Shown here in pieces: positions 21,147 through 33,000 of a DNA stretch of 64,000 nt. Under the pieces are notes generated by a model. The model was not told the origin of the DNA and did no database searches. It worked only from the letters and a program-made list of their open reading frames with translations. Made by a program: the position numbers and the translations under genes. Source of the stretch: Synechococcus sp. GTDB lineage: Bacteria; Cyanobacteriota; Cyanobacteriia; Thermostichales; PCC-7336. Location of the stretch: assembly GCA_051439425.1 (NCBI GenBank), contig JBFRWD010000075.1, forward strand, positions 1 to 64,000. The letters are read 5' to 3'. Positions within the stretch are counted from its first letter, which is position 1, and each line of letters opens with the position of its first letter.

Positions 21147-22172
21147 GTGACTGTCGATTCTCCTGCCTCCAATTCTCTCAACTCGGTACAACTAGTTAGT
21201 GTGGCGACGGCTGTTCCTGAGACAGTTTTGACGAATGACGAGCTGGGACAGATTGTCGATACCTCCGACGAATGGATTCGCCCCCGCACCGGAATTCGCG
21301 AACGTCGCATCTTAGAGCCGAGTCGCACTTTGGTCGATCTTGGTGCGGAAGCCGGTCGGTTGGCGATCGCGCAGGCTGGCCTTGAGCCGATGGACATTGA
21401 CCTAATTGTGTTGGCGACATCTACCAGTAGCGAACGATTTGGGGCGGCTGGTGCCATTCAAGGACAGTTGGGAGCCAAGCGAGCGGTGGCGTTTGACCTA
21501 ACGGCGGCTTGCACTGGGTTTGTGTATGCGGTGGCGACGGCGGCGCAGTTTTTGCAGACGGGGGTGTATCGGCGGGCATTGATTGTGGCGGCAGATGTGT
21601 TGTCGCGCACAGTGGATTGGAGCGATCGCCGTACCTGCGTTCTATTTGGTGATGGTGCCGGAGCGGTTGTATTGGAAACTGGTTCGACTCAGGGATTGCT
21701 GGGGATGGAGTTGCGTACGGATGGTACGGGCAGCGATTTGCTGACGTTAGAGAATAAGTCGGAATCGGTGGAGCTGACTGACTCCATTTCTGTAGGGCAG
21801 TATCGCAATCAGTTCATTGCCATGAATGGGCGCGAGGTTTACAAGTTTGCGGTGCGAGAAGTGCCGGAGGTCGTGGAGAAGACGCTGTTTCGGGCGGGTC
21901 TGGATGCGGCGGATGTGGATGGATATTTCATGCATCAGGCGAATCAGCGGATTTTGGATGCGATCGCCAAACGCCTGAAAGTAGACAATGACCGGTTTGC
22001 GAGCGTTCTCGATCGCTACGGCAATACCTCAGCGGCGTCGATTCCGTTGGCGCTGGCGGATTGGGTGGAGTCGGGCAAGTTGAAGACCGGACAGACGGCG
22101 CTGGCGGCAGGGTTTGGTGCAGGACTGACTTGGGGGGCGATCGCTTTTAAGTGGGGGCGATTGGACGGTTAG
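21147..22172 (+). CDS. fabH: 3-oxoacyl-ACP synthase III
   Basis: DTSDEWIRPRTGI, AACTGF, FGDGAGA, MNGREV, HQANQRI, GNTSAAS, GFGAGLTWG. Confidence 0.97.
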   Translation: MTVDSPASNSLNSVQLVSVATAVPETVLTNDELGQIVDTSDEWIRPRTGIRERRILEPSRTLVDLGAEAGRLAIAQAGLEPMDIDLIVLATSTSSERFGAAGAIQGQLGAKRAVAFDLTAACTGFVYAVATAAQFLQTGVYRRALIVAADVLSRTVDWSDRRTCVLFGDGAGAVVLETGSTQGLLGMELRTDGTGSDLLTLENKSESVELTDSISVGQYRNQFIAMNGREVYKFAVREVPEVVEKTLFRAGLDAADVDGYFMHQANQRILDAIAKRLKVDNDRFASVLDRYGNTSAASIPLALADWVESGKLKTGQTALAAGFGAGLTWGAIAFKWGRLDG

Positions 22173-24934
22173 TCGCTCTTCTGATTTTCTTGGATGTTTT
22201 CGGAGAGAGCTTTTTGGCGATCGTGAATGCGTTTAGCTATGTCTTGAGCAACCTCGGTGATCTCTTGCGCTTGGCGTGGGTTTTCTCCTTGAAAGAGTTT
22301 GATTCCTATAATTAGGGGCTCTAGTTTGGACGCTATTGGGCAGTTGGTGAGAACTCGTACCGTTTCTAGGGTGTTACCTCGGACAACAGCTTCGACGAAG
22401 AAACTCGTAATTGGTCCAATGAAATTAGATGCGTTTTTGAGAGTCAATAGTTTTGCAAAGGCTGTAAACGCCTCGTCGTAGAGCTCCAAATGCTCGTGCA
22501 GTAACTGTCCTAGTCTTACCCAAAGCTCTGCGTTATCTGGTTTGAGCTCGATAGCTTTGCGATAAGCTTCCTTTGCCTCACCATAGTTCTTCAAACATTC
22601 ATGCAATAACTTTCCTCGAAATAGCCATAGTATCCATTCATAATTTGGAGGAACGAGTTCGATGGCTTTGCGGTAGGCTTCTTCAGCCTCGTCGTAGCGT
22701 TCCAAACGCACGTGTAGTAGTTTCCCAAAGTGAGCCCAAAAGTTCCATGCTTGACTGGACTTGATAGAGATTCCTTTACAATAAGCTGCTTCAGCTTCGT
22801 CGAACCGCTCCAAATGCTCGTACAGTAACCCTAGTTGTCCCCAAGCCCATTCGTAATCGGGTTCGAGCTCGATAGTCTTGCGATAAGTCTGTTCAGCCTC
22901 GTCGTAACGCTCCAAACACTCGTGCAGTAACTGTCCAAGTTGTCCCAAAGCCCATGCGTCATCGGGTTTGAGCTCGATGGCCTTGCGATAAGTCTGCTCA
23001 GCCTCGTCGTAACGCTCCAAGCGCTCGTGCAGTAATTGTCCGAGTTGTGCCCAATCCCATGCGTCATCGGGTTCGAGCTCGATGGCTTTGCGATAAGCCT
23101 GCTCAGCCTCATCGTAACGCTCCAAACGCTCGTGTAGTAATTGTCCTAGTTTTGCCCAATCCCATGCGTCATCGGGTTTGAGCTCGATGGCTTTGCGATA
23201 AGCCTGCTCAGCTTCGTTGTAACGCTCCAAACGCTCGTGCAGTAATTGCCCTAGTTTTGCCCAATCCCATGCGTCATCGGGTTTGAGCTCGGTAGCCTTG
23301 CGATAAGCCTGCTCAGCCTCGTCGTAACGCTCCAAACGCTCGTGCAGTAACTGTCCTAGTTTTGCCCAAGCCCATTCGTAATCGGATTTGAGCTCTATGG
23401 CCTTGCGATAAGCTTCCTCAGCCTCGTCGTAGCGCTCCAAATGCTCGTGCAGTAATTGCCCTAGTTGTGTCCATGCTTTATGGTCATGTGGATTTATCTC
23501 GATGCGCTTGCGAAGCTCTTTTTCAGACTCTATCGGCGATAACGAGACAGCAGATTCTGAGGTGTCTGTAAGTGCGTTTGAAAGCTGTTTCAACTCTTCA
23601 GGAAGATCGAAAGCGGTAAAAAAGTCTTCTGGAGTTGCCTTTAATATTTCCGTCTTGAGTGATTTGGTGATTCCTTTATGATTGACAATTTCGCCATATG
23701 CACAATACAAATCTTGCCGGAAATCTTGATTGATCCCACCAATTTCCTTCGCCAATTTTGTAGTTGCAAGTACAAGATCTTGCTCTTGATAATATTGCAC
23801 CATAAAATCGACAGCCGCTCTTACCCGACTGGCGGCTGTGCTGCGGCGTCGCATCAAATAGTAAATGTTGTAAAGCCTTTCAGTTGCCTGATAGTACTTC
23901 CTACGTCCTTCTTTTTCAACAACTTCTACTGCCCCTCGATTTACCAAACGATTCAATACAGAGCTCGCTTTGTTAATGTCTAACCGTGCTTTTTGTGAAA
24001 CTTCTTTTGCTGTCGCAGGATCCCAGATCTCCAGCAATGCAACAAAAATCTTCCGTTCCTGGGCTGGCAGACTTTCAAGTTGGCCTTTAAAATAATCCGT
24101 GTGCTCATCAATTAATCGAGTCAGATTAGTCATTAAGTCTTGAAATGACAATTGCGCAGCAAACTCCGCCAAAATTCTAACGAGCCGAGGATTTCCTCCA
24201 GTCAATATTCTGACGGGATGTAATTGCTGTTCTGAAATTTCTTGTCCTGTGATTTTGTTCCAAAGCGGTTGACAATCTGCTGTACTTAAAGGTTTTAATT
24301 CAATCTGCTCAAATAGCTCGAACCAAGCTTTATCGATGTTTGAAATCTCATCAAAACTGGCTGTTGCCGTTCCCAATAGCATTGCACGCGGCTCGTTCAT
24401 TAACGTATGGCGCAACGTCCAATCATCATCGCTACCAAGCTGTTCCTCCAACAACATGTTCAGATTTTCAACAACCAGTAGTAGCTTCCCCCCCCGTTCA
24501 TCCACAAAATCCATTAGCTGCGCTAACGCCCTTGCCGCCAGCCGCTGGTCGTCCATCTCCGATTCCAGCTCGTCGTATACCAATTGCCACCGACCGTCTT
24601 TCGTTTGTTCCCCTAAATAAAACAACGCTTCCCGCCAAAATTCCCCCGGACTTGTAACCGAATAGACCTCTTCACCAAACACCAGCGGATACCAATCCGC
24701 ATCCAACTCTTTGCTCCGACGAATCTCCGCAGCTACTCGTCGCACCAGCGTTGTCTTTCCAGTCCCTCGCGCCCCAATCAACAACACGTGCTGGTTGCTT
24801 TCCGCCTCCACGTTGTCCCGGATCCGTTCTATCGTCAGGTCGAGATACTCATTGCGCACCACAAACTGTTTGATGACCTCGTCATCGCTGCTAAACCCCG
24901 GATTGTATTTGGGAGCTGACAGAACCACCATCAC
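22169..24934 (-). CDS. STAND-like P-loop NTPase + winged helix + TPR array
   Basis: Walker A GARGTGKTT, atypical Walker B LLVVEN, TGGNPR, wHTH-like segment (ATAKEVSQKARL...LNRLVNRG), about 10 TPRs; GTGA overlap with the upstream ATPase. Confidence 0.85.
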   Translation of the reverse strand: MMVVLSAPKYNPGFSSDDEVIKQFVVRNEYLDLTIERIRDNVEAESNQHVLLIGARGTGKTTLVRRVAAEIRRSKELDADWYPLVFGEEVYSVTSPGEFWREALFYLGEQTKDGRWQLVYDELESEMDDQRLAARALAQLMDFVDERGGKLLLVVENLNMLLEEQLGSDDDWTLRHTLMNEPRAMLLGTATASFDEISNIDKAWFELFEQIELKPLSTADCQPLWNKITGQEISEQQLHPVRILTGGNPRLVRILAEFAAQLSFQDLMTNLTRLIDEHTDYFKGQLESLPAQERKIFVALLEIWDPATAKEVSQKARLDINKASSVLNRLVNRGAVEVVEKEGRRKYYQATERLYNIYYLMRRRSTAASRVRAAVDFMVQYYQEQDLVLATTKLAKEIGGINQDFRQDLYCAYGEIVNHKGITKSLKTEILKATPEDFFTAFDLPEELKQLSNALTDTSESAVSLSPIESEKELRKRIEINPHDHKAWTQLGQLLHEHLERYDEAEEAYRKAIELKSDYEWAWAKLGQLLHERLERYDEAEQAYRKATELKPDDAWDWAKLGQLLHERLERYNEAEQAYRKAIELKPDDAWDWAKLGQLLHERLERYDEAEQAYRKAIELEPDDAWDWAQLGQLLHERLERYDEAEQTYRKAIELKPDDAWALGQLGQLLHECLERYDEAEQTYRKTIELEPDYEWAWGQLGLLYEHLERFDEAEAAYCKGISIKSSQAWNFWAHFGKLLHVRLERYDEAEEAYRKAIELVPPNYEWILWLFRGKLLHECLKNYGEAKEAYRKAIELKPDNAELWVRLGQLLHEHLELYDEAFTAFAKLLTLKNASNFIGPITSFFVEAVVRGNTLETVRVLTNCPIASKLEPLIIGIKLFQGENPRQAQEITEVAQDIAKRIHDRQKALSENIQENQKSD
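22465..23490 (-). repeat. About 105-bp (35-aa) tandem TPR-coding repeats; central units nearly identical at DNA level
   Basis: Recurrent WAKLGQLLHERLERYDEAEQAYRKAIELKPDD; boundaries approximate. Confidence 0.9.
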
Positions 24935-26175
24935 CCATCCCCCCGATCGCTAGCAGACACGTAGCTAAAACCGTAATGGTTTTTCCACCAATCCCTCAAT
25001 AAATTCGATTCAAATTCATAACAGGCATCCCGTTGAATCAAATACCCGTCGTGCTTCAAGATCCCCAAAATCTCTATCAGCGAACTGTCTTCTCCAACCT
25101 CTCCGTAGTCTTGGCAAATCATCTGTGCTGCTGCTGGAGTTAACTGCCCAACAACTGCCGCTTCAGTCAATAGCTCTAACGTCAGTGGATGTTGTTTCAC
25201 ACTCAACACCATCTTGATGCGCTCTTCTAAGTGACTCAGATCGGCATGTCCCCTTACTCCCAACATGTCTTGCTGGTAAATACGCTCGGCTAGATCGAGA
25301 GAAATCGTTTCAAGGCTATTCTTCCTGCAATGTTGGTAGAGGTGGCTAAAGAACATCTGGACGTGGTACGGAATGCAAACCCCTAGTAACGCCGCCATCC
25401 GCTGCTGCACATCATCTTCAAACGTGAGCTGAACCTCATTTGCTAAGGCATCCCAACAGGCACAAGCAACGTTTACCGACCATGCCTTCAAATCAAATGG
25501 TGTCAGATGATTGATCGTGGCACTTAACCCCGCCTTTCGTAACAGCGGCTCTAACCCAATCGACCCCGTTACCACAAACCTCAACGTCCCCTGGTGTTGC
25601 AAGCAATTCCTTCTCAGCCAAGACATCCATAGCTCGGCTTCCTCCTTACGCTCATTGGTCATGCTGTAGTCCGAGCCTTTCAGCATCCGACTCACTAGAA
25701 TCGGCACTTCATCGCAGAAAATCGCCACTGGTTGTTCCGAACTGGCCAATATATCCAAGAGACGATTGCCCTTACTCTGCCAATCACCTGGTGAGAGTCC
25801 CCCACGTAGTTTGATCTTCAACTCGCTGACTTGGATACTCCCTACACTTTGAGCTAGGCCATCCAATGTATTGGCAAACAAGTCCTGAGTTTTGATCCAC
25901 AAGGGTTTATGCTCGCGTGTTGCTACGCTCAACTCGGCGATCGCGTCTGCAGCGTCCTTTGCATCTTGCAAGTCGATATGCAAACAGATGTATCGATCGG
26001 AAATCCGCCGCGACACCTCGTGCATCAAACTTGTTTTTCCCATCCGCCGCTGTGCCACCAACAGCAGATGGTCGCCGCTATCCAACGACTCTTCAAATAG
26101 CTCTAGCTCTGCTTCTCGCCCAAAGAACCGATTGCCCGTTACGTAGTTGCCGACCGTACGCTTGAGCTTGTCCAC
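24931..26175 (-). CDS. P-loop ATPase (AAA/STAND-like) without a sensor domain
   Basis: FFGREAEL, Walker A AQRRMGKTS, Walker B IFCDE, VVTGSIGL, PYHVQ; start placed at GTG 26175 (AAGAGG upstream) rather than 26319. Confidence 0.82.
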   Translation of the reverse strand: MDKLKRTVGNYVTGNRFFGREAELELFEESLDSGDHLLLVAQRRMGKTSLMHEVSRRISDRYICLHIDLQDAKDAADAIAELSVATREHKPLWIKTQDLFANTLDGLAQSVGSIQVSELKIKLRGGLSPGDWQSKGNRLLDILASSEQPVAIFCDEVPILVSRMLKGSDYSMTNERKEEAELWMSWLRRNCLQHQGTLRFVVTGSIGLEPLLRKAGLSATINHLTPFDLKAWSVNVACACWDALANEVQLTFEDDVQQRMAALLGVCIPYHVQMFFSHLYQHCRKNSLETISLDLAERIYQQDMLGVRGHADLSHLEERIKMVLSVKQHPLTLELLTEAAVVGQLTPAAAQMICQDYGEVGEDSSLIEILGILKHDGYLIQRDACYEFESNLLRDWWKNHYGFSYVSASDRGDG

Positions 26176-26191
26176 AGCCAAATGCCTCTTT

Positions 26192-26267
26192 TCAACAATT
26201 CCATTGCCAACAAATTTGTTGGCAAGGTTAATATATCCAACAATTCTGTTGCCAACAAATCCGTTGG
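26192..26267. promoter_or_regulatory. 15-bp-period array of CAAC-N6-GTTG palindromes, including a perfect 22-bp palindrome TTGCCAACAAATTTGTTGGCAA (26204-26225)
   Basis: Units TCAACAATTCCATTG, CCAACAAATTTGTTG, (degenerate), CCAACAATTCTGTTG, CCAACAAATCCGTTG; regulatory role is inferred. Confidence 0.45.
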
Positions 26268-26359
26268 GGATATTCAGAAAGAGAAAAGCCCCCATTGAGA
26301 ACTGCTCAATAGAGGCCAAGGTTATTGAATTACCTCTGTCTTCAGGGATCTGAAGGTGT

Positions 26360-27712: not shown

Positions 27713-29314
27713 CTACAAATCTCCGTTGGCAATCATCTGAATGGCCCGAGGGGCACCGGGGTCAAACCCAGCGAAATCCCACGACAACGGATCTTGAGGA
27801 TCGACCAAAGAGATGCGGTACGGAGCCAGCGAAACGTAAACCGCTTTCGCATCGGGATTCACCTTACGGCGATACTCTGCCAACGCCTGTGCGGGATGTC
27901 GCTTGCCTGCCCACGACTCGCAATCTGTCCAGAAGCAAAACACATCCGTCCAGACCCGCTTGGCGATCGCCCAGTCATACGCCACCGACGCATCCGTCCC
28001 CCCAAACGTTTGTCGCGTCGTCTTCTGCAACGCAGACGAGAAACAATCCCGAGCCGTAATCCCCAAGTCTTTGAAGGTAGTCGAGAATCCGCGAATAACA
28101 TAGTTTTTCTCGGCTTTCGCCGTTACCAACGCCATCGTTGTCGCAATCTCGCTACAAGACAGATTCATAGACCCGCCAGAGTAACAAGACATAGACCCCG
28201 AAACATCGACCGCATGCAAGAACGTCTTGCCCGTAGGCTTCACGGTCTCAAACGAACGCTCCAGAGCTTTCTCTAAAATGTCGCAAATGCGAGGAATCGG
28301 TTCCCACGTCTTCTTGCTGCGACCGGATCGACCCCCAGATCGATAAGTCTTCAGCGCCTTCAACACGTCAATCGGATGAATCCGTCCCTTGCGCAAGCGA
28401 TCGCGACTGGTCAACACCTTCGCCACCCGCCTCAAGTTCTTAGACTTGTGAACTTGCAACACCCCAATTTCAGTCAAAGACCCCAAGTTGCGCAACAGCG
28501 CCCCAATCGGCATGTCTTCAAACAGTAACTGCCAAGCGTTGGCATCCATCTTGGCGATCGGAGCCACCATCTCGTGGGTCAATCGCCCCTCGGAGATCGC
28601 CATGCAGGTACTGTCAGGATTGCGCTTCAACCACTCGTACCACCACACCTGAGCAATCGGTCCATTGGGCACCCGATCGGGCAATGTCTCCCACCCATTT
28701 ACCACCCAGTCGTAGAGAGCCTGGTGCCCTTCTGTCTCAGGCTTAACGTGGAATAAACGCAAGGCATCGCGATTGCTAAACCCATGCCGTTGTCGGTACT
28801 TCAACAACTGATAAGTCAACCACTTCACATCAGGATTCGACAACCACCCCTTACCGCATTCCCGCACCACCTTACCCAAACCACGCACGGACTTGGTGTA
28901 GTTCAACCACTCGTAAAAATGACTGCCGGTGCGCACCACCTTAGGGAAAATCTCCATAAATGCCTGTTTTGCAGCATGGGAATCCCCCATAGACAGCAAC
29001 ACCAAGGCGTAGATGGGGGCGCTGTTGTTGATGGAACGACCGTCGCTAGCCGAGACAATCTCGCTCGCGGTGCGGGCTGGGTCTTTGTCCACACAAGCCA
29101 AGACCGTATCGGTAAAGTCACCGGTTAAATCGTGTTTGTCGGCGTAATAGGTGCTTTGCGCCGTGCCGATCAGCAAGCAGCGGGTCAGCATGGTCCAGGG
29201 GCCGGGGTCAAACATGTAACCGCCAGACCGACCACGTACCATCTCCTGTTCACGTCCGGGAATCGGTTGATGTTGAGGAGTTTTAGTAGTCGAGGTGAAA
29301 AATTTATATGACAT
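27713..29314 (-). CDS. rsr: Ro60/TROVE-domain RNA-binding protein with C-terminal vWA domain
   Basis: SGGYMF, LLIGT...TYY, VRTGSH, KYRQRHG...RDALRLFH, MPIGALLRNLG, RIHP, AVDVSGSM (MIDAS), GGTD, WTD, GFD; start at ATG 29314 with GGAG upstream. Confidence 0.93.
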   Translation of the reverse strand: MSYKFFTSTTKTPQHQPIPGREQEMVRGRSGGYMFDPGPWTMLTRCLLIGTAQSTYYADKHDLTGDFTDTVLACVDKDPARTASEIVSASDGRSINNSAPIYALVLLSMGDSHAAKQAFMEIFPKVVRTGSHFYEWLNYTKSVRGLGKVVRECGKGWLSNPDVKWLTYQLLKYRQRHGFSNRDALRLFHVKPETEGHQALYDWVVNGWETLPDRVPNGPIAQVWWYEWLKRNPDSTCMAISEGRLTHEMVAPIAKMDANAWQLLFEDMPIGALLRNLGSLTEIGVLQVHKSKNLRRVAKVLTSRDRLRKGRIHPIDVLKALKTYRSGGRSGRSKKTWEPIPRICDILEKALERSFETVKPTGKTFLHAVDVSGSMSCYSGGSMNLSCSEIATTMALVTAKAEKNYVIRGFSTTFKDLGITARDCFSSALQKTTRQTFGGTDASVAYDWAIAKRVWTDVFCFWTDCESWAGKRHPAQALAEYRRKVNPDAKAVYVSLAPYRISLVDPQDPLSWDFAGFDPGAPRAIQMIANGDL

Positions 29315-29368
29315 CTTTTCTTCTCCGTCCCTGATGGGATAAACGAACGGTGTCCCCAAATGGGGAAG

Positions 29369-29493
29369 GGAGACGGACGGGAATCGAACCCGTATCTCGG
29401 CGGACAAAAGGGGGGATCGTTAACAGCGATAACCTTGAGTCCTTCAGCCCTTGCGGGCAATCAGTGCGCTCTACCGTTTGAGCTACCGACTCC
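29369..29493 (-). ncRNA. Y-RNA-like tRNA mimic, unit D (module in permuted order)
   Basis: Acceptor GGAGTCGG/CCGTCTCC, D arm GCTCAAACGGTAGAGC, T arm ACGGG-TTCGATT-CCCGT; anticodon arm replaced by GCCC-GCAA-GGGC-TGAA-GGACTCAAGG-TTATCG...CCTTTTGTCC. Confidence 0.8.
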
Positions 29494-29515
29494 ATATAGG
29501 TTTTGGGAAAAACAT

Positions 29516-29620
29516 TGGTGGACGGGAAGAGATTCGAACTCCTGACCGATAACCCTCGCTCGACGACCTATGAGGTAAAGAGTGAACGAGGGGTTGCTCT
29601 ACCATTTGAGCTACCCGCCC
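29516..29620 (-). ncRNA. Y-RNA-like tRNA mimic, unit C (encoded CCA; G3:U70, A73)
   Basis: GGGCGGG-TA-GCTCAAATGGTAGAGC-A...CCCTCGTTC-ACTCTTT-ACCT-CAT-AGGT-CGTC-GAGCGAGGG-TTATCGGTC-AGGAG-TTCGAAT-CTCTT-CCCGTCC-A-CCA. Confidence 0.88.
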
Positions 29621-29653
29621 ATATTGAGTTTTGAGAATGAGAGGGGATTTGTT

Positions 29654-29756
29654 CGCGAAGCGTCTCCGTCAGGAGATACCCCGCCTTCCAGCTACCGATA
29701 ACCTTCATCCGGCGTCCCTTTCGGGTCAGTGGTGAATAAAGAGGAAGACTCGCCCG
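29654..29756 (-). ncRNA. Y-RNA-like unit B (shared module, no canonical D or T arm)
   Basis: CTTCC...CTTTATTC-ACCACTG-ACCC-GAAA-GGGA-CGCC-GGATGAAG-GTTATCG...GGAAG, then hairpin TCTCC-TGAC-GGAGA; ends approximate. Confidence 0.6.
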
Positions 29757-29765
29757 TATTGAGGT

Positions 29766-29896
29766 TGTAGTGGAGGAGGACTCGAACCTCCAGATGACGC
29801 AGTTCCCTACGATAACCCTCACTCTTCGACCCAATGGGTAAGAAATTGAATAAGGTAACTCGACTGCCGCCTTTACCAATTTGGCCACCCACTACA
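29766..29896 (-). ncRNA. Y-RNA-like tRNA mimic, unit A
   Basis: Acceptor TGTAGTGGG/TCCACTACA, D arm GCCAAATTGGTAAAGGC, stem GCAGT/ACTGC enclosing CCTTATTC-AATTTCTT-ACCC-ATT-GGGT-CGAA-GAGTGAGG-GTTATCG, T arm GGAGG-TTCGAGT-CCTCC. Confidence 0.85.
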
Positions 29897-30040
29897 GGTG
29901 TTTGACTTGATAGTGGTGCGATGAAGTGTGTTTGGCTTGCGCCGCCCGTCCCTCATCGACATCCCAAGACTAAGAGCCACTTGCCCCCCTATTCGAATGC
30001 AGCTCAAAACCCGGCCAACGCAGACTGGATAAGAGATGGG

Positions 30041-30080
30041 AGTTAGGGGGGAGGTGTGAAGTTGGGGGGCCCCCCTAACT
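30041..30080. terminator. Inverted repeat AGTTAGGGGGG/CCCCCCTAACT just after the diguanylate cyclase stop
   Basis: 11-bp perfect arms; would separate the DGC transcript from the ncRNA array. Confidence 0.5.
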
Positions 30081-30083
30081 TTG

Positions 30084-33000
30084 TTAGTGGAATTGCTGTT
30101 GGGATATTGGAGACTGAGCGACTCGATCTTGCGGGCGGGCAAATCGGTGCTTGGTGCGATCGTAGATTTCGTAGCGATTGCGGCCGCCTGTTTTTGCTGC
30201 GTACATGGCGGCATCTGCGTCGCGCAAAATCTCGGCTGGCGAGTTATACCTCGGATTACCGAGCGCTATGCCAATGCTGGTGCTGGTGGAAAGTTGGCGA
30301 TCGCCAATCACGACGGGTTGCATCACTGCCGTGAGAATGCGCTCGGCGGTTTGCTGGATGCCGACAGTACTCTCCAAGTCATCCAGCAAAATTGTAAACT
30401 CGTCTCCCCCCAACCGAGAGACTGTATCCCCCGTGCGTACGCACTGCTGCAAGCGCTGAGCAATGGTGCGCAACAGCCGGTCTCCTGCGGCGTGACCGAG
30501 GGTATCGTTCACCGATTTAAATCGATCCAGGTCGAGGAACAGAACGGCGTATTGTTCGCTGAGACGGCGTTTGCTCCGTTCGATCGCCTGTCCCAGCCGA
30601 TCGTTAAAGAGCGATCGATTGGGCAATCCGGTTAAGGGATCGTGGAAGGCGTGGAACCGTAGCTCTTGCTCCATCACCTTGCGAGTTGTGATGTCTTCCA
30701 CCGTGCCGACATAGTACAAAAGCTGACCGGAACTATCCTGCACAGCCCGCCAATTTTCACTCACCCAAAATGTGTTGCCGTCGCGGTGGCGCACCTCAGA
30801 TTCGTAAGCTTCCACTGCAAAATCTGTTGCCAATTGCTGCAGCAATTGCTGGCGCTGTTGAGAGTCAACGTAGAGCAGCTGGTGAACGTTTGCCACCGAT
30901 GCCATCATTTGGGCTGGACTTTCGTAGCCGTACATGGCGGCCAGTGCAGGATTTGCCCCGATCAACTGCCCGTCTGGGGCGACTTGGAAGATTCCCTCTA
31001 GTGCTTGCTCGAAAATGCTGCGATATTTGGCTTCTGCTTGTTGCAGGGCGTCCTGGGCCTGCTGTCGCTCGGTGATGTCGTTGCCCACGTACAGTACGCA
31101 CAACTCACCGGACAATTCAATCAAATTCGCTGACAGCAATAGAGTGCGGGTATTGCCAGAATGTTGCTTGAACTCCACCTCCAGATTGCGGACAACACCA
31201 TCTGTTTTCAGCCGTCTAAAAATCTCCCTTCGGGTCAGATCGCGGTGCCACAAGCCCAATTCTTTAGCGGTGCGCCCGATCGCCGCCTCCCGCTCTAATT
31301 TGCAGATGCTGAGGAAGCTGTCGTTAACCTCCAACAATTTGCCGGAGCGTACTGCCACAATGGCCACCGGACTGGAGCTGGATTTAAAGGCGGCGGCGAA
31401 CTTTTCTTCCGATTGTCGTAGGGCTATTTCCGCATGCTTGCGCTCGGTGGTATCGCGAGCGACTAACAGGGCTGTGGTGGCTCCAGCAGGTGAAATTCGT
31501 CCGGAAAAGCATCTCTTTTGCCCGTTAATCTCCAACTGGTATTCCAGATCGGTGGTTTCGTTGCGATCGATCGCGGCTTGAATCGCCGTCAAACAGCGAT
31601 TGCTATCATCGTCACTAATCAGATGTTGGAGGTGAATGCGCAATAGCTCTTCGGAAGGGGAGATGGGAGAGGAGGGATCGCTGGAGGTGATGTGGGTGTA
31701 GCGACCGACGCGATCGAACATCAGAATCACTTCGGTCATGGCGGAGAACACCACCCGCATGTGTCGTTCGGCGGCTTCCAGAGTAGCGGTGCGCTGCTGT
31801 ACCCGATGCTCTAGTTCTACGTTGGTGGTGGCGAGGCGATCGATCGTGCCGCGCAATTGTGTGGCCAGTCCTTTGACAGAGGTGGAGAGAATTTCAAGCT
31901 CCGAGATCGTGCTGTGGGGAACAGCTAAGTCCAAAGCATTTGGGCCACCGGCCGCCATTTTTCGCGCCACCGAGCTGAGTTCGTGGATGGAGCGAGCCAT
32001 CCACCGGGCCGTCGCATTGCCGAACACGATGGCTAGTAACAGGGCGACTAAATACAGTGCTAGGGTGTCCCGCATGCTGCGACTGAGAGTACCGATTAGA
32101 TCGGAGCTGGGGATGGCCACGATCATGAGCCAATCCAATCCCAGATCTCCTTTCATGGAGTCAACCTGAACGTAATAGGTTTCTCCGGCTGGGTCGCGAA
32201 CCAATCCTTGAAAGGCGTCAACGGCTGCGTAGCTGCCAAATTCGTTGAGGAGGTGTTGCTCCACCGCTTGCATGTAGCTGTTGCTGCTGTCCGATACTGT
32301 GAACGGAGTTGGGGTTTCGCCCTCCGCGATCTGAGGAAACGTGTCTGCTTGGGAGCTGGCGACCACCGAGCCGCTGCGCTCTAGGATGATGGCCTCGCCC
32401 CGCTCGCCAATTTGCAATTCAGTTAGGAAGTCATCCAGTTGCGACAGAGTGATGTCCACCGCCAGGACCCCATCAAGTTGATTGTTGCTGTCGCGGATGG
32501 GGATAGTGGGGGTAACGCCTCGCACCGGCTGGGCCGCAAAGTAGTAGATCGGAGACCAGGTGGGGCCGTTACTTTCCCTGGCAGACTCGTACCATGGCCG
32601 GATTCGCGGATCGTAACTATCCGTTCTCAGAAGAGTTTCTGGCTCGCCGTTGCTATCTAACTGATAAATTTCGCGGGTGGGGGCGATGTCGGATGTGACG
32701 CGGTAGGAGAGGGGCTCGTCTTCACTTTGAGTGACGAGTATAAACTGGCCGGATTCATCACCGTAGTACATCGTACGGACAGATTCTTCTAACCGTACGA
32801 CTTGATAGAAGTAGCGTTGTAGGTCCTCGAAATTACTGGGATCGATTTGGCCGGTGGAGATGGCCGCTTGCGTGATTTGCAAAAAGGTGTGGGGCTGCTT
32901 GGCAAAATCAATCAGGTGATGTTCGATATGTTCGGTTGCTTCGGAACTCAGCTCGAAGGCGAGCGATCGCACGGCTCGCTGGCCGTTATAGAACGATAGG

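Follow-up and report, generated by a model that had tools for sequence, protein, structure and literature searches.

A cyanobacterial Y RNA gene with tRNA topology and an alanine-type acceptor end

Judged from its sequence, the gene called here unit C, which lies beside rsr in Synechococcus sp., is a Y RNA of the YrlA kind that combines an unpermuted tRNA topology with a complete alanine acceptor end. AlaRS recognizes its substrates chiefly by G3:U70, and other tRNAs accept alanine once this pair is put into them; the set G1-C72, G2-C71, G3:U70, and A73 is conserved in the tRNA-Ala of chloroplasts and plant mitochondria as well as in that of prokaryotes, archaea, and the eukaryal cytoplasm (PMC9976931). 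In the Y RNA, comparison argues for selection on this alanine set, because all four orthologues of unit C keep it and the same combination recurs in other unit types and in a second stem register. We consider AlaRS recognition the best single explanation of the end, with roughly an even chance of being right, and we predict more tentatively, at somewhat less than an even chance, that the RNA is charged with alanine in vivo.

Unit C and the rsr-rtcB locus

The window, meaning the whole 64,000-nt stretch of DNA that was analyzed, holds an array of tRNA-shaped units in the order A, broken B, C, D, directly upstream of rsr and then rtcB, all on one strand (Table 1). On the same strand, rsr follows 195 nt after the CCA end of unit C, well inside the distance of about 4 kb used for YrlA. 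The first-pass annotation had described a potentially alanylated Y RNA with the full alanine identity set, and the Y RNA type and the identity set were borne out. Unit C is a Y-RNA-type gene adjoining rsr and rtcB, and its minus-strand sequence contains G1-C72, G2-C71, G3:U70, A73, and an encoded CCA. The two acceptor strands form seven of seven pairs, with G3 opposite U70.

Table 1. Coordinates of the Y RNA units, the parts of unit C, and the adjoining genes in the window
Feature	Position	Strand	Basis
Unit A, tRNA-shaped Y RNA, 8-bp acceptor stem (G-1:C73)	29767..29895	-	R1, 86 bits
Unit B remnant, D-arm-less	29633..29755 (about)	-	Alignment with G003 and G001
Unit C, tRNA-shaped Y RNA gene including encoded CCA, 105 nt	29516..29620	-	Rfam tRNA, R1, cloverleaf MFE
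Unit C acceptor 5' strand GGGCGGG (29620-29614), positions 1-7, G3 = 29618	29614..29620	-	Sequence; covariation
Unit C D arm, GCUC / AAAUGGUA / GAGC	29596..29611	-	Rfam tRNA alignment; compensatory change
Unit C 40-nt long arm in place of the anticodon arm; bulged-C helix (Ro60-site homologue) and small tip loop	29553..29592	-	Fold, alignment
Unit C GGGUUAUCG motif	29547..29555	-	Invariant or near-invariant columns of the 34-unit alignment
Unit C T arm, AGGAG / UUCGAAU / CUCUU	29527..29543	-	Rfam tRNA alignment; compensatory change
Unit C acceptor 3' strand CCCGUCC (29526-29520), positions 66-72, U70 = 29522; A73 = 29519; CCA = 29518-29516	29516..29526	-	Sequence
Unit D, tRNA-shaped Y RNA, 8-bp stem (G-1:C73)	29369..29493	-	Rfam tRNA, 39.3 bits; R1, 77.4 bits
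rsr, Ro60 orthologue, 535 aa	27713..29320	-	Pfam vWA_Ro60, 1.5e-38; TROVE, 5.3e-16
rtcB RNA ligase, 441 aa	26360..27685	-	Pfam RtcB, 2e-124

Unit C matches the Rfam tRNA model (RF00005) at 42.9 bits against a cut-off of 29, over positions 29620-29519. In that alignment the D and T arms are canonical, with the conserved loop nucleotides present there and in the invariant columns of our own alignment, and a 44-nt insertion occupies the place of the anticodon arm, so that the 5-bp anticodon stem, the 7-nt loop, and the anticodon are all missing. ARAGORN called no tRNA anywhere in the window. The minimum free energy fold, at -38.4 kcal/mol (z = -3.47), is a cloverleaf in which one arm is long, and none of 200 shuffled sequences was as stable. 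Our own covariance model, R1, scores the unit at 87.8 bits.

In most cyanobacterial units the long arm forms a helix, CUUGCC...GGCCGAAG, in which a C is bulged out and which contains the motif GNCGAAN0-1G. Chen et al. 2014 relate this motif to the GGUCCGA contacted by Ro60 (PMC4201824). It is exact in unit A and in most cyanobacterial units. The unit C of the window reads GUCGUCG, two deviations from GNCGAAG; its counterparts in the same-genus genomes G003 and G001 read GUCGACG and GUCGAAG, respectively.

The third pair is not G:U in unit A and is A-U in unit D, and neither encodes CCA. Unit B has a degraded 3' acceptor strand and a T loop split by a 25-nt insertion (about 29653-29677). G003 and G001 have five units each (A, B, B', C, and D), and B' is absent from the window array. 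Because unit B is broken and B' is missing, this genome retains only unit C as an intact representative of its kind. The array is absent from G002, a complete genome of the same genus.

The insert in unit B is part of a short hairpin repeat that is dispersed in other cyanobacterial genomes, with six matches in G039, two in G027, and one in G040; loci L005-L007, L010, L011, and L013-L016 group with this repeat (window 29653-29677). A scan of 29250-30150 returned no promoter-like and no terminator-like sites, and a query for RNA sequencing runs over 29300-29920 listed none. Just 3' of a GGDEF gene that ends at 30084 lies a near-perfect palindrome, AAGUUAGGGGG-N-CCCCC-N-AACUU (about 30055-30085, minus strand). 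It is kept upstream of the Y RNA array in G000, G003, and G001 and could end transcription of the upstream gene as a hairpin or bind a protein. Upstream of unit A, a block of about 36 nt (about 29935-29973, minus strand) is near-invariant in three same-genus genomes, with two variable columns. It holds a GUCGAUGAGGGA stretch that resembles the Ro60-site region of the units, and candidate roles for the block are leader, promoter element, and additional Ro60-binding RNA lacking a tRNA part.

The flanks of the protein genes also have features of their own. The 5' UTR of rsr (29311-29347, minus strand), overlapping the ribosome-binding site, matches the glutamine riboswitch below threshold (RF01739; 20.8 bits, cut-off 35, E = 0.26), and the hairpin with its GGGACGGAGAA core also precedes rsr in G003, G001, and G032. 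Two proteins are encoded on the 3' side of rtcB (22169-26319, minus strand) and could belong to the same operon as rtcB. One has 462 aa and matches AAA_16 weakly; the other is a STAND-type NTPase of 921 aa in which a TrmB-like HTH is combined with many TPR repeats.

Open acceptor ends and the permuted YrlA reading

How general is the architecture of unit C? We aligned 34 units, wrote a structure for them, and built R1 from that alignment. In this structure 94.3% of cells pair, and 19 of the 28 pairs show compensatory change. The covariation score is 0.472 as against 0.206 for shuffles (0 of 500 reach 0.472) and at most 0.137 for controls with slid partners. All seven acceptor pairs covary within the unit, and compensatory changes are found in three of four D-stem pairs and four of five T-stem pairs. 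The GGGUUAUCG motif is near-invariant and common to all units. In an even sample of 151 cyanobacterial genomes, R1 finds units of 100-150 nt, scoring at least 56 bits, in 26, and tRNA-sized matches in those 26 genomes score at most 55 bits. In rsr loci fetched by protein, units lie upstream or just downstream of rsr and on the rsr strand.

YrlA (RF02553), known from Salmonella Typhimurium and Mycobacterium smegmatis, resembles unit C in adjoining rsr (and rtcB) on the same strand and in having tRNA-like D and T arms and an acceptor helix; its GNCGAA-type Ro60-site motif recurs in most cyanobacterial units and, with two deviations, in unit C. The two differ in which end is free. YrlA ends in the Ro60 stem and closes its acceptor with a loop, and it is said to lack "a free CCA end" (10.1101/312249), whereas the units described here close the Ro60 arm, leave the acceptor open, and encode CCA. 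The Rfam YrlA model aligns weakly over two neighboring half-units, 3' from the first and 5' from the second, which shows that the modules of the units are homologous to those of YrlA but stand in the opposite circular order. The published YrlA of Lyngbya aestuarii BL J (108660-108828) corresponds to positions 1974-2142 of our locus L033, where it spans two adjacent units, and the cyanobacterial rows of the published YrlA seed alignment contain the GAGGGUUAUCG block and GGGUUAUCG.

Cyanobacterial YrlAs have been published as permuted RNAs with a "much longer acceptor stem" (10.1101/312249, PMC4201824). On such a reading the RNA would run from the long arm through the T arm into an "acceptor" stem-loop, formed by the 3' strand of one unit, the spacer, and the 5' strand of the next, and on into the next D arm, and the functional RNA would have neither a free acceptor end nor a CCA terminus. 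Chen et al. 2014 annotate the cyanobacterial RNAs in this way in their Table S1 and seed alignment (PMC4201824), and the Rfam model does align over two adjacent units, at 20.7 bits and as a partial model across units C and D of the window and at 35.7 bits over the full model in the best relative, G003; both scores are far under the cut-off of 69. Strands of neighboring units can pair at six or more of seven positions at 20 of 55 junctions, yet their mean is 5.04 of 7 with 6 of 55 perfect, as against a mean of 6.92 of 7 with 98 of 106 perfect for the two strands of one unit (units with fewer than six pairs left out), and it is the within-unit pairing that covaries at every position. Permutation would also orphan the 5' half of the first unit and the 3' half of the last. 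Single-unit loci exist (L027 and L029), and stable small loops of GNRA-like, UUCG-like, or three-base type cap the long arms. Finally, 38 of 106 units have CCA directly after the discriminator, as against about 1 in 64 by chance, an enrichment that would be meaningless inside a hairpin loop. We regard the permuted reading as improbable. From the better own-strand pairing, the half-units that would otherwise be orphaned, the single-unit loci, and the closed long arms, we conclude that the units are most consistently read as separate, non-permuted tRNA-shaped Y RNAs.

The published cyanobacterial loci with a "long acceptor stem" would thus need to be re-read as arrays of separate, CCA-ended, tRNA-shaped RNAs. 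The tandem arrays also suggest how the permuted YrlA found elsewhere may have originated, namely by a shift of processing sites within a tandem duplicate. The seed row of the delta-proteobacterium Chondromyces apiculatus (PMC4201824, Supplementary Text 2) looks like an open acceptor, with a T arm, a 3' strand, G, and CCA, and the unpermuted architecture may therefore extend beyond cyanobacteria.

Deinococcus radiodurans Yrn1 and the metazoan Y RNAs offer another comparison. As in most cyanobacterial units (CUUGCC ... GGCCGAAG), both strands of their bulged Ro60 helix are recognizable (PMC4201824). Their helix is built from the 5' and 3' termini of the RNA, whereas that of the cyanobacterial units is an internal hairpin closed by a loop.

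The alanine-type end in orthologues, paralogues, and distant units

Among 39 ARAGORN calls in the genome that contains the window, G3:U70 occurs only in tRNA-Ala(GGC) and in two tmRNA genes, and unit C is identical to these at G1-C72, G2-C71, G3:U70, and A73. None of the 37 tRNA genes of this genome is followed by CCA. Descent of unit C from tRNA-Ala was considered and rejected: its acceptor/D and T/acceptor halves best match tRNA-Lys, and tRNA-Ala ranks fourth.

The first-pass annotation had proposed conservation of 3:70 among homologues as a check on alanine identity. Close relatives agree with it. The unit C orthologues of G000, G003, G001, and L026, whose Rsr proteins are 73-94% identical, all have G1-C72, G2-C71, G3:U70, and A73, while other positions change around them: 5:68 goes from G-C to A-U, 50:64 is G:U, G-C, or A-U, and 49:65, 51:63, and 52:62 change as well. 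CCA is encoded in two of the four and is replaced by ACA in G001 and UCC in L026. Likewise, the B and B' units of G003 and G001 all (4/4) have G3:U70 followed by A and CCA, and they show compensatory changes at 2:71, 6:67, and 7:66. The B' orthologues of L026 and L052 have A3-U70 and keep ACCA. Many distant units have G-C or A-U at 3:70, however, and alanine identity would therefore belong to a subset of the units and not to the whole family.

For a wider count, R1 was run over 51 sources and gave 116 matches, of which 106 distinct units were kept. Eight rows were left out because their acceptor columns held gaps or N, they had under six of seven acceptor pairs, or the GGUUAUC-type motif was missing, and two identical duplicates were also dropped. 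Among the rows left out are those of L019 and L020, each with one unit that has an 8-bp stem, G-C as third pair, and G before CCA and that lacks the alanine-like end; the single units of L027 and L029, which were retained, both have it. We defined the stem register by a rule of our own, in which G-C at -1:73 makes an 8-bp stem, and every unit with C73 does have G at -1. The type labels M, D, C, and B come from crude regular expressions that are partly at odds with the tree, and they were not used for any count.

In counts that include related species and are not phylogenetically independent, the third pair from the helix end is G:U in 34 of 106 units, made up of 13 of the 51 with 7-bp stems and 21 of the 55 with 8-bp stems. 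Elsewhere in the stem, G:U occurs zero to two times each at pairs 2 and 4-6 (4-7 in 8-bp stems); at the pair that abuts the T stem it is found in 4 of 51 units with 7-bp and 16 of 55 with 8-bp stems. The wobble goes together with the tail, as 27 of the 36 units with an encoded A-CCA have G:U as third pair and only 7 of the 70 units without it do. A large 8-bp class begins G-C, U-A, G:U and ends in A and CCA; here G:U is third from the end of the helix and sits at tRNA position 2:71. Across 21 such 8-bp units from many families the G:U is invariant, and pairs 2, 5, 7, and 8 vary.

A tree made without the acceptor bases places the alanine-like ends in one large clade drawn from numerous families, and it also shows them in the clades of C, B, and B' and on scattered units. 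The sister clade that lost the G:U, to which unit D of the window belongs, is also without CCA. About 18 alanine-like units form one orthologous clade, and others may stem from recombination between units. Nine units with ACCA have G-C or A-U as third pair, and one unit type (UGGCAGG/CCUG[C/U]CA) alternates between G-C and G:U at 3:70 in the fashion of a neutral wobble. An alanine-like unit is absent from 20 of the 44 loci examined, and some of these 20 are truncated. Scanning metagenomes with Rsr gave five loci at 63-69% identity. Three have the unit coordinates, scores, or acceptor ends of loci already known from the genome scan, L073 is the contig of L030, and the one new locus in this identity range has no alanine-like unit.

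A unit from a Xenococcaceae MAG (L037:1983-2103) has G-1:C73 followed directly by CCA, an end of the histidine-identity type. Other units might therefore mimic other acceptor-defined identities.

Proposed AlaRS recognition, its rivals, and known aminoacylated RNAs

Taken together, the features of unit C can be assembled into a proposed mechanism. The RNA is built on a non-permuted tRNA scaffold in which the 7-bp acceptor stem is open, both the D and the T arm are present, and a 40-nt hairpin with the putative Ro60-binding helix and GGGUUAUCG replaces the anticodon arm. It is probably co-transcribed with units A, B, and D upstream of rsr-rtcB, and it would be released by RNase P at G1 and then trimmed to the encoded CCA. 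Because G1-C72, G2-C71, G3:U70, A73, and CCA make up the anticodon-independent alanine identity set, the mature RNA is predicted to bind AlaRS and most likely to be charged, while Ro60 would sit on the long arm. An alanyl end could protect the 3' terminus from exonucleases or tether AlaRS or EF-Tu to Ro60; we infer the Ro60 binding, the AlaRS recognition, and the use of the alanyl end alike. An 8+5-bp acceptor/T stack, as in tRNA-Sec, would not favor EF-Tu. Extended to the family, the proposal is that Ro60 particles hold an alanyl-Y RNA, that AlaRS charges a subset of the units in vivo, and that selection keeps the third-pair G:U together with ACCA. We hold this family-wide version tentatively, somewhat short of an even chance. 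The same tentative standing applies to its corollary that selection on G:U and ACCA would operate whichever the stem length or unit type.

What else could account for the end of unit C? It is quite possible, with a probability of about one third, that the same tRNA-shaped Y RNA is never aminoacylated and that G:U and ACCA serve another purpose or none. They might shape or stabilize the helix end for RNase P or for 3'-end processing; the end might be read by another binder of tRNA ends, for instance the CCA-adding enzyme, RtcB, DTD, AlaX-type proteins, PNPase, or the Ro60 cavity; or the G:U might be a tolerated wobble that was inherited and spread by recombination between units. Several observations fit such a view. 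Third-pair G:U is missing from 72 of the 106 units and an alanine-like unit from nearly half of the loci, ACCA persists in B' variants with A-U, G-C and G:U replace each other within one unit type, and the frequency of G:U next to the T stem in 8-bp stems indicates that these stems tolerate wobbles. In addition, G3:U70 is a determinant for DTD as well (PMC9976931), and published Y RNAs work as tethers or gates without charging. A Y RNA that is never charged nevertheless leaves three regularities unexplained: the G:U lies third from the end in both registers (3:70 and 2:71), it is tied to the A discriminator and the encoded CCA, and it is invariant in the 8-bp class of many families in which other pairs vary. 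AlaRS recognition would account for these patterns, and we prefer it.

Two further alternatives seem very improbable to us. Unit C might be a decaying tRNA, a functionless pseudo-tRNA with an insertion in its anticodon arm; it does reach an Rfam tRNA score, and its neighbor unit B is degraded by an insertion. Yet it is no closer to tRNA-Ala than to the other tRNAs of the genome, its stems evolve by compensatory change, and the long arm with GGGUUAUCG is conserved across cyanobacterial families, always beside rsr. The other alternative was put forward in the first-pass annotation, which noted that the tip of the long arm reads CUCAUAG, like a Met anticodon loop, and suggested that it could be a bait for anticodon nucleases that RtcB reseals. 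The motif is at the tip and rtcB is in the operon, but the tip differs in all three other C orthologues, where it reads CUCAUGG, CUUUCGG (a UUCG-type loop), and CCCAACGG. It favors a fold in which ACCU/AGGU is closed by a CAU triloop, and overall these tips form loops of 3-5 nt on stems of 3-4 bp where an anticodon arm would have 7 nt and 5 bp. In other units, too, the homologous tips end in short loops, of GNRA type or otherwise. We dropped the bait idea because the CUCAUAG tip is not conserved, and such a function is hardly to be expected of unit C.

Is there a precedent for charging a Y RNA? YrlA of M. smegmatis, the only Y RNA known to acquire CCA, is cut by RNase P and gains this tail in vivo, and Chen et al. 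2014 remark that the cleaved RNA "could potentially be aminoacylated" (PMC4201824). In the published seed alignment, its acceptor begins A1-U72, G2-C71, G3-C70 (PMC4201824). With G3-C70, it sets no precedent for alanine identity in a Y RNA. Full-text searches, in a library short of most subscription journals, found no paper linking Y RNAs or Ro60 to AlaRS or G3:U70.

The closest parallel is tmRNA, which like unit C is a cellular RNA other than a tRNA with G1-C72, G2-C71, G3:U70, and A73, and which is stated in general terms to be charged with alanine and bound by EF-Tu (PMC4201824, 10.1101/312249). In the genome of the window, the tmRNA acceptor reads GGGGCUG/CAGCUCC-A. The D-arm-less B units come closest to the tRNA-like domain of tmRNA, whereas unit C has a full D arm. 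Moreover, tmRNA has an mRNA-like reading frame and pseudoknots, both of which are missing from the units, and its partner is SmpB, whereas the context of the units implies Ro60. The Rfam tmRNA model (RF00023) scores 7.7-17 bits against a cut-off of 47, the match in the window being a partial one of 7.7 bits nearby, and the tmRNA genes called by ARAGORN lie elsewhere in the genome, with none in the window. There are two of them (C135:1423-1811 and C145:10794-11185), and a single residue separates their tag peptides, which suggests strain heterogeneity or duplication; the assembly is rated at 96% completeness and 1.1% contamination.

The 3' tRNA-like structures of viruses (Val in TYMV, Tyr in BMV, and His in the TMV type) resemble unit C as tRNA mimics with a CCA end, and they are charged by host synthetases without normal decoding (10.1101/312249). 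They differ in that they form the ends of viral genomes and that their acceptor arms contain pseudoknots and receive Val, Tyr, or His, whereas unit C is a stand-alone small cellular RNA with a canonical acceptor stem and an alanine-type identity.

Why would a Y RNA carry a tRNA-like module? Y RNAs are described as tethers and gates of Ro60, and the partner of their tRNA-like module is treated as an open question (10.1101/312249, PMC4201824). For one subset of Y RNAs, our analysis offers a concrete prediction: the partner would be AlaRS, and the RNA may be alanylated. If this is true, alanyl-Y RNA would be the second cellular class of aminoacylated non-tRNA RNAs after tmRNA, and RNA surveillance by Ro60 and RtcB would be coupled to the aminoacylation machinery.
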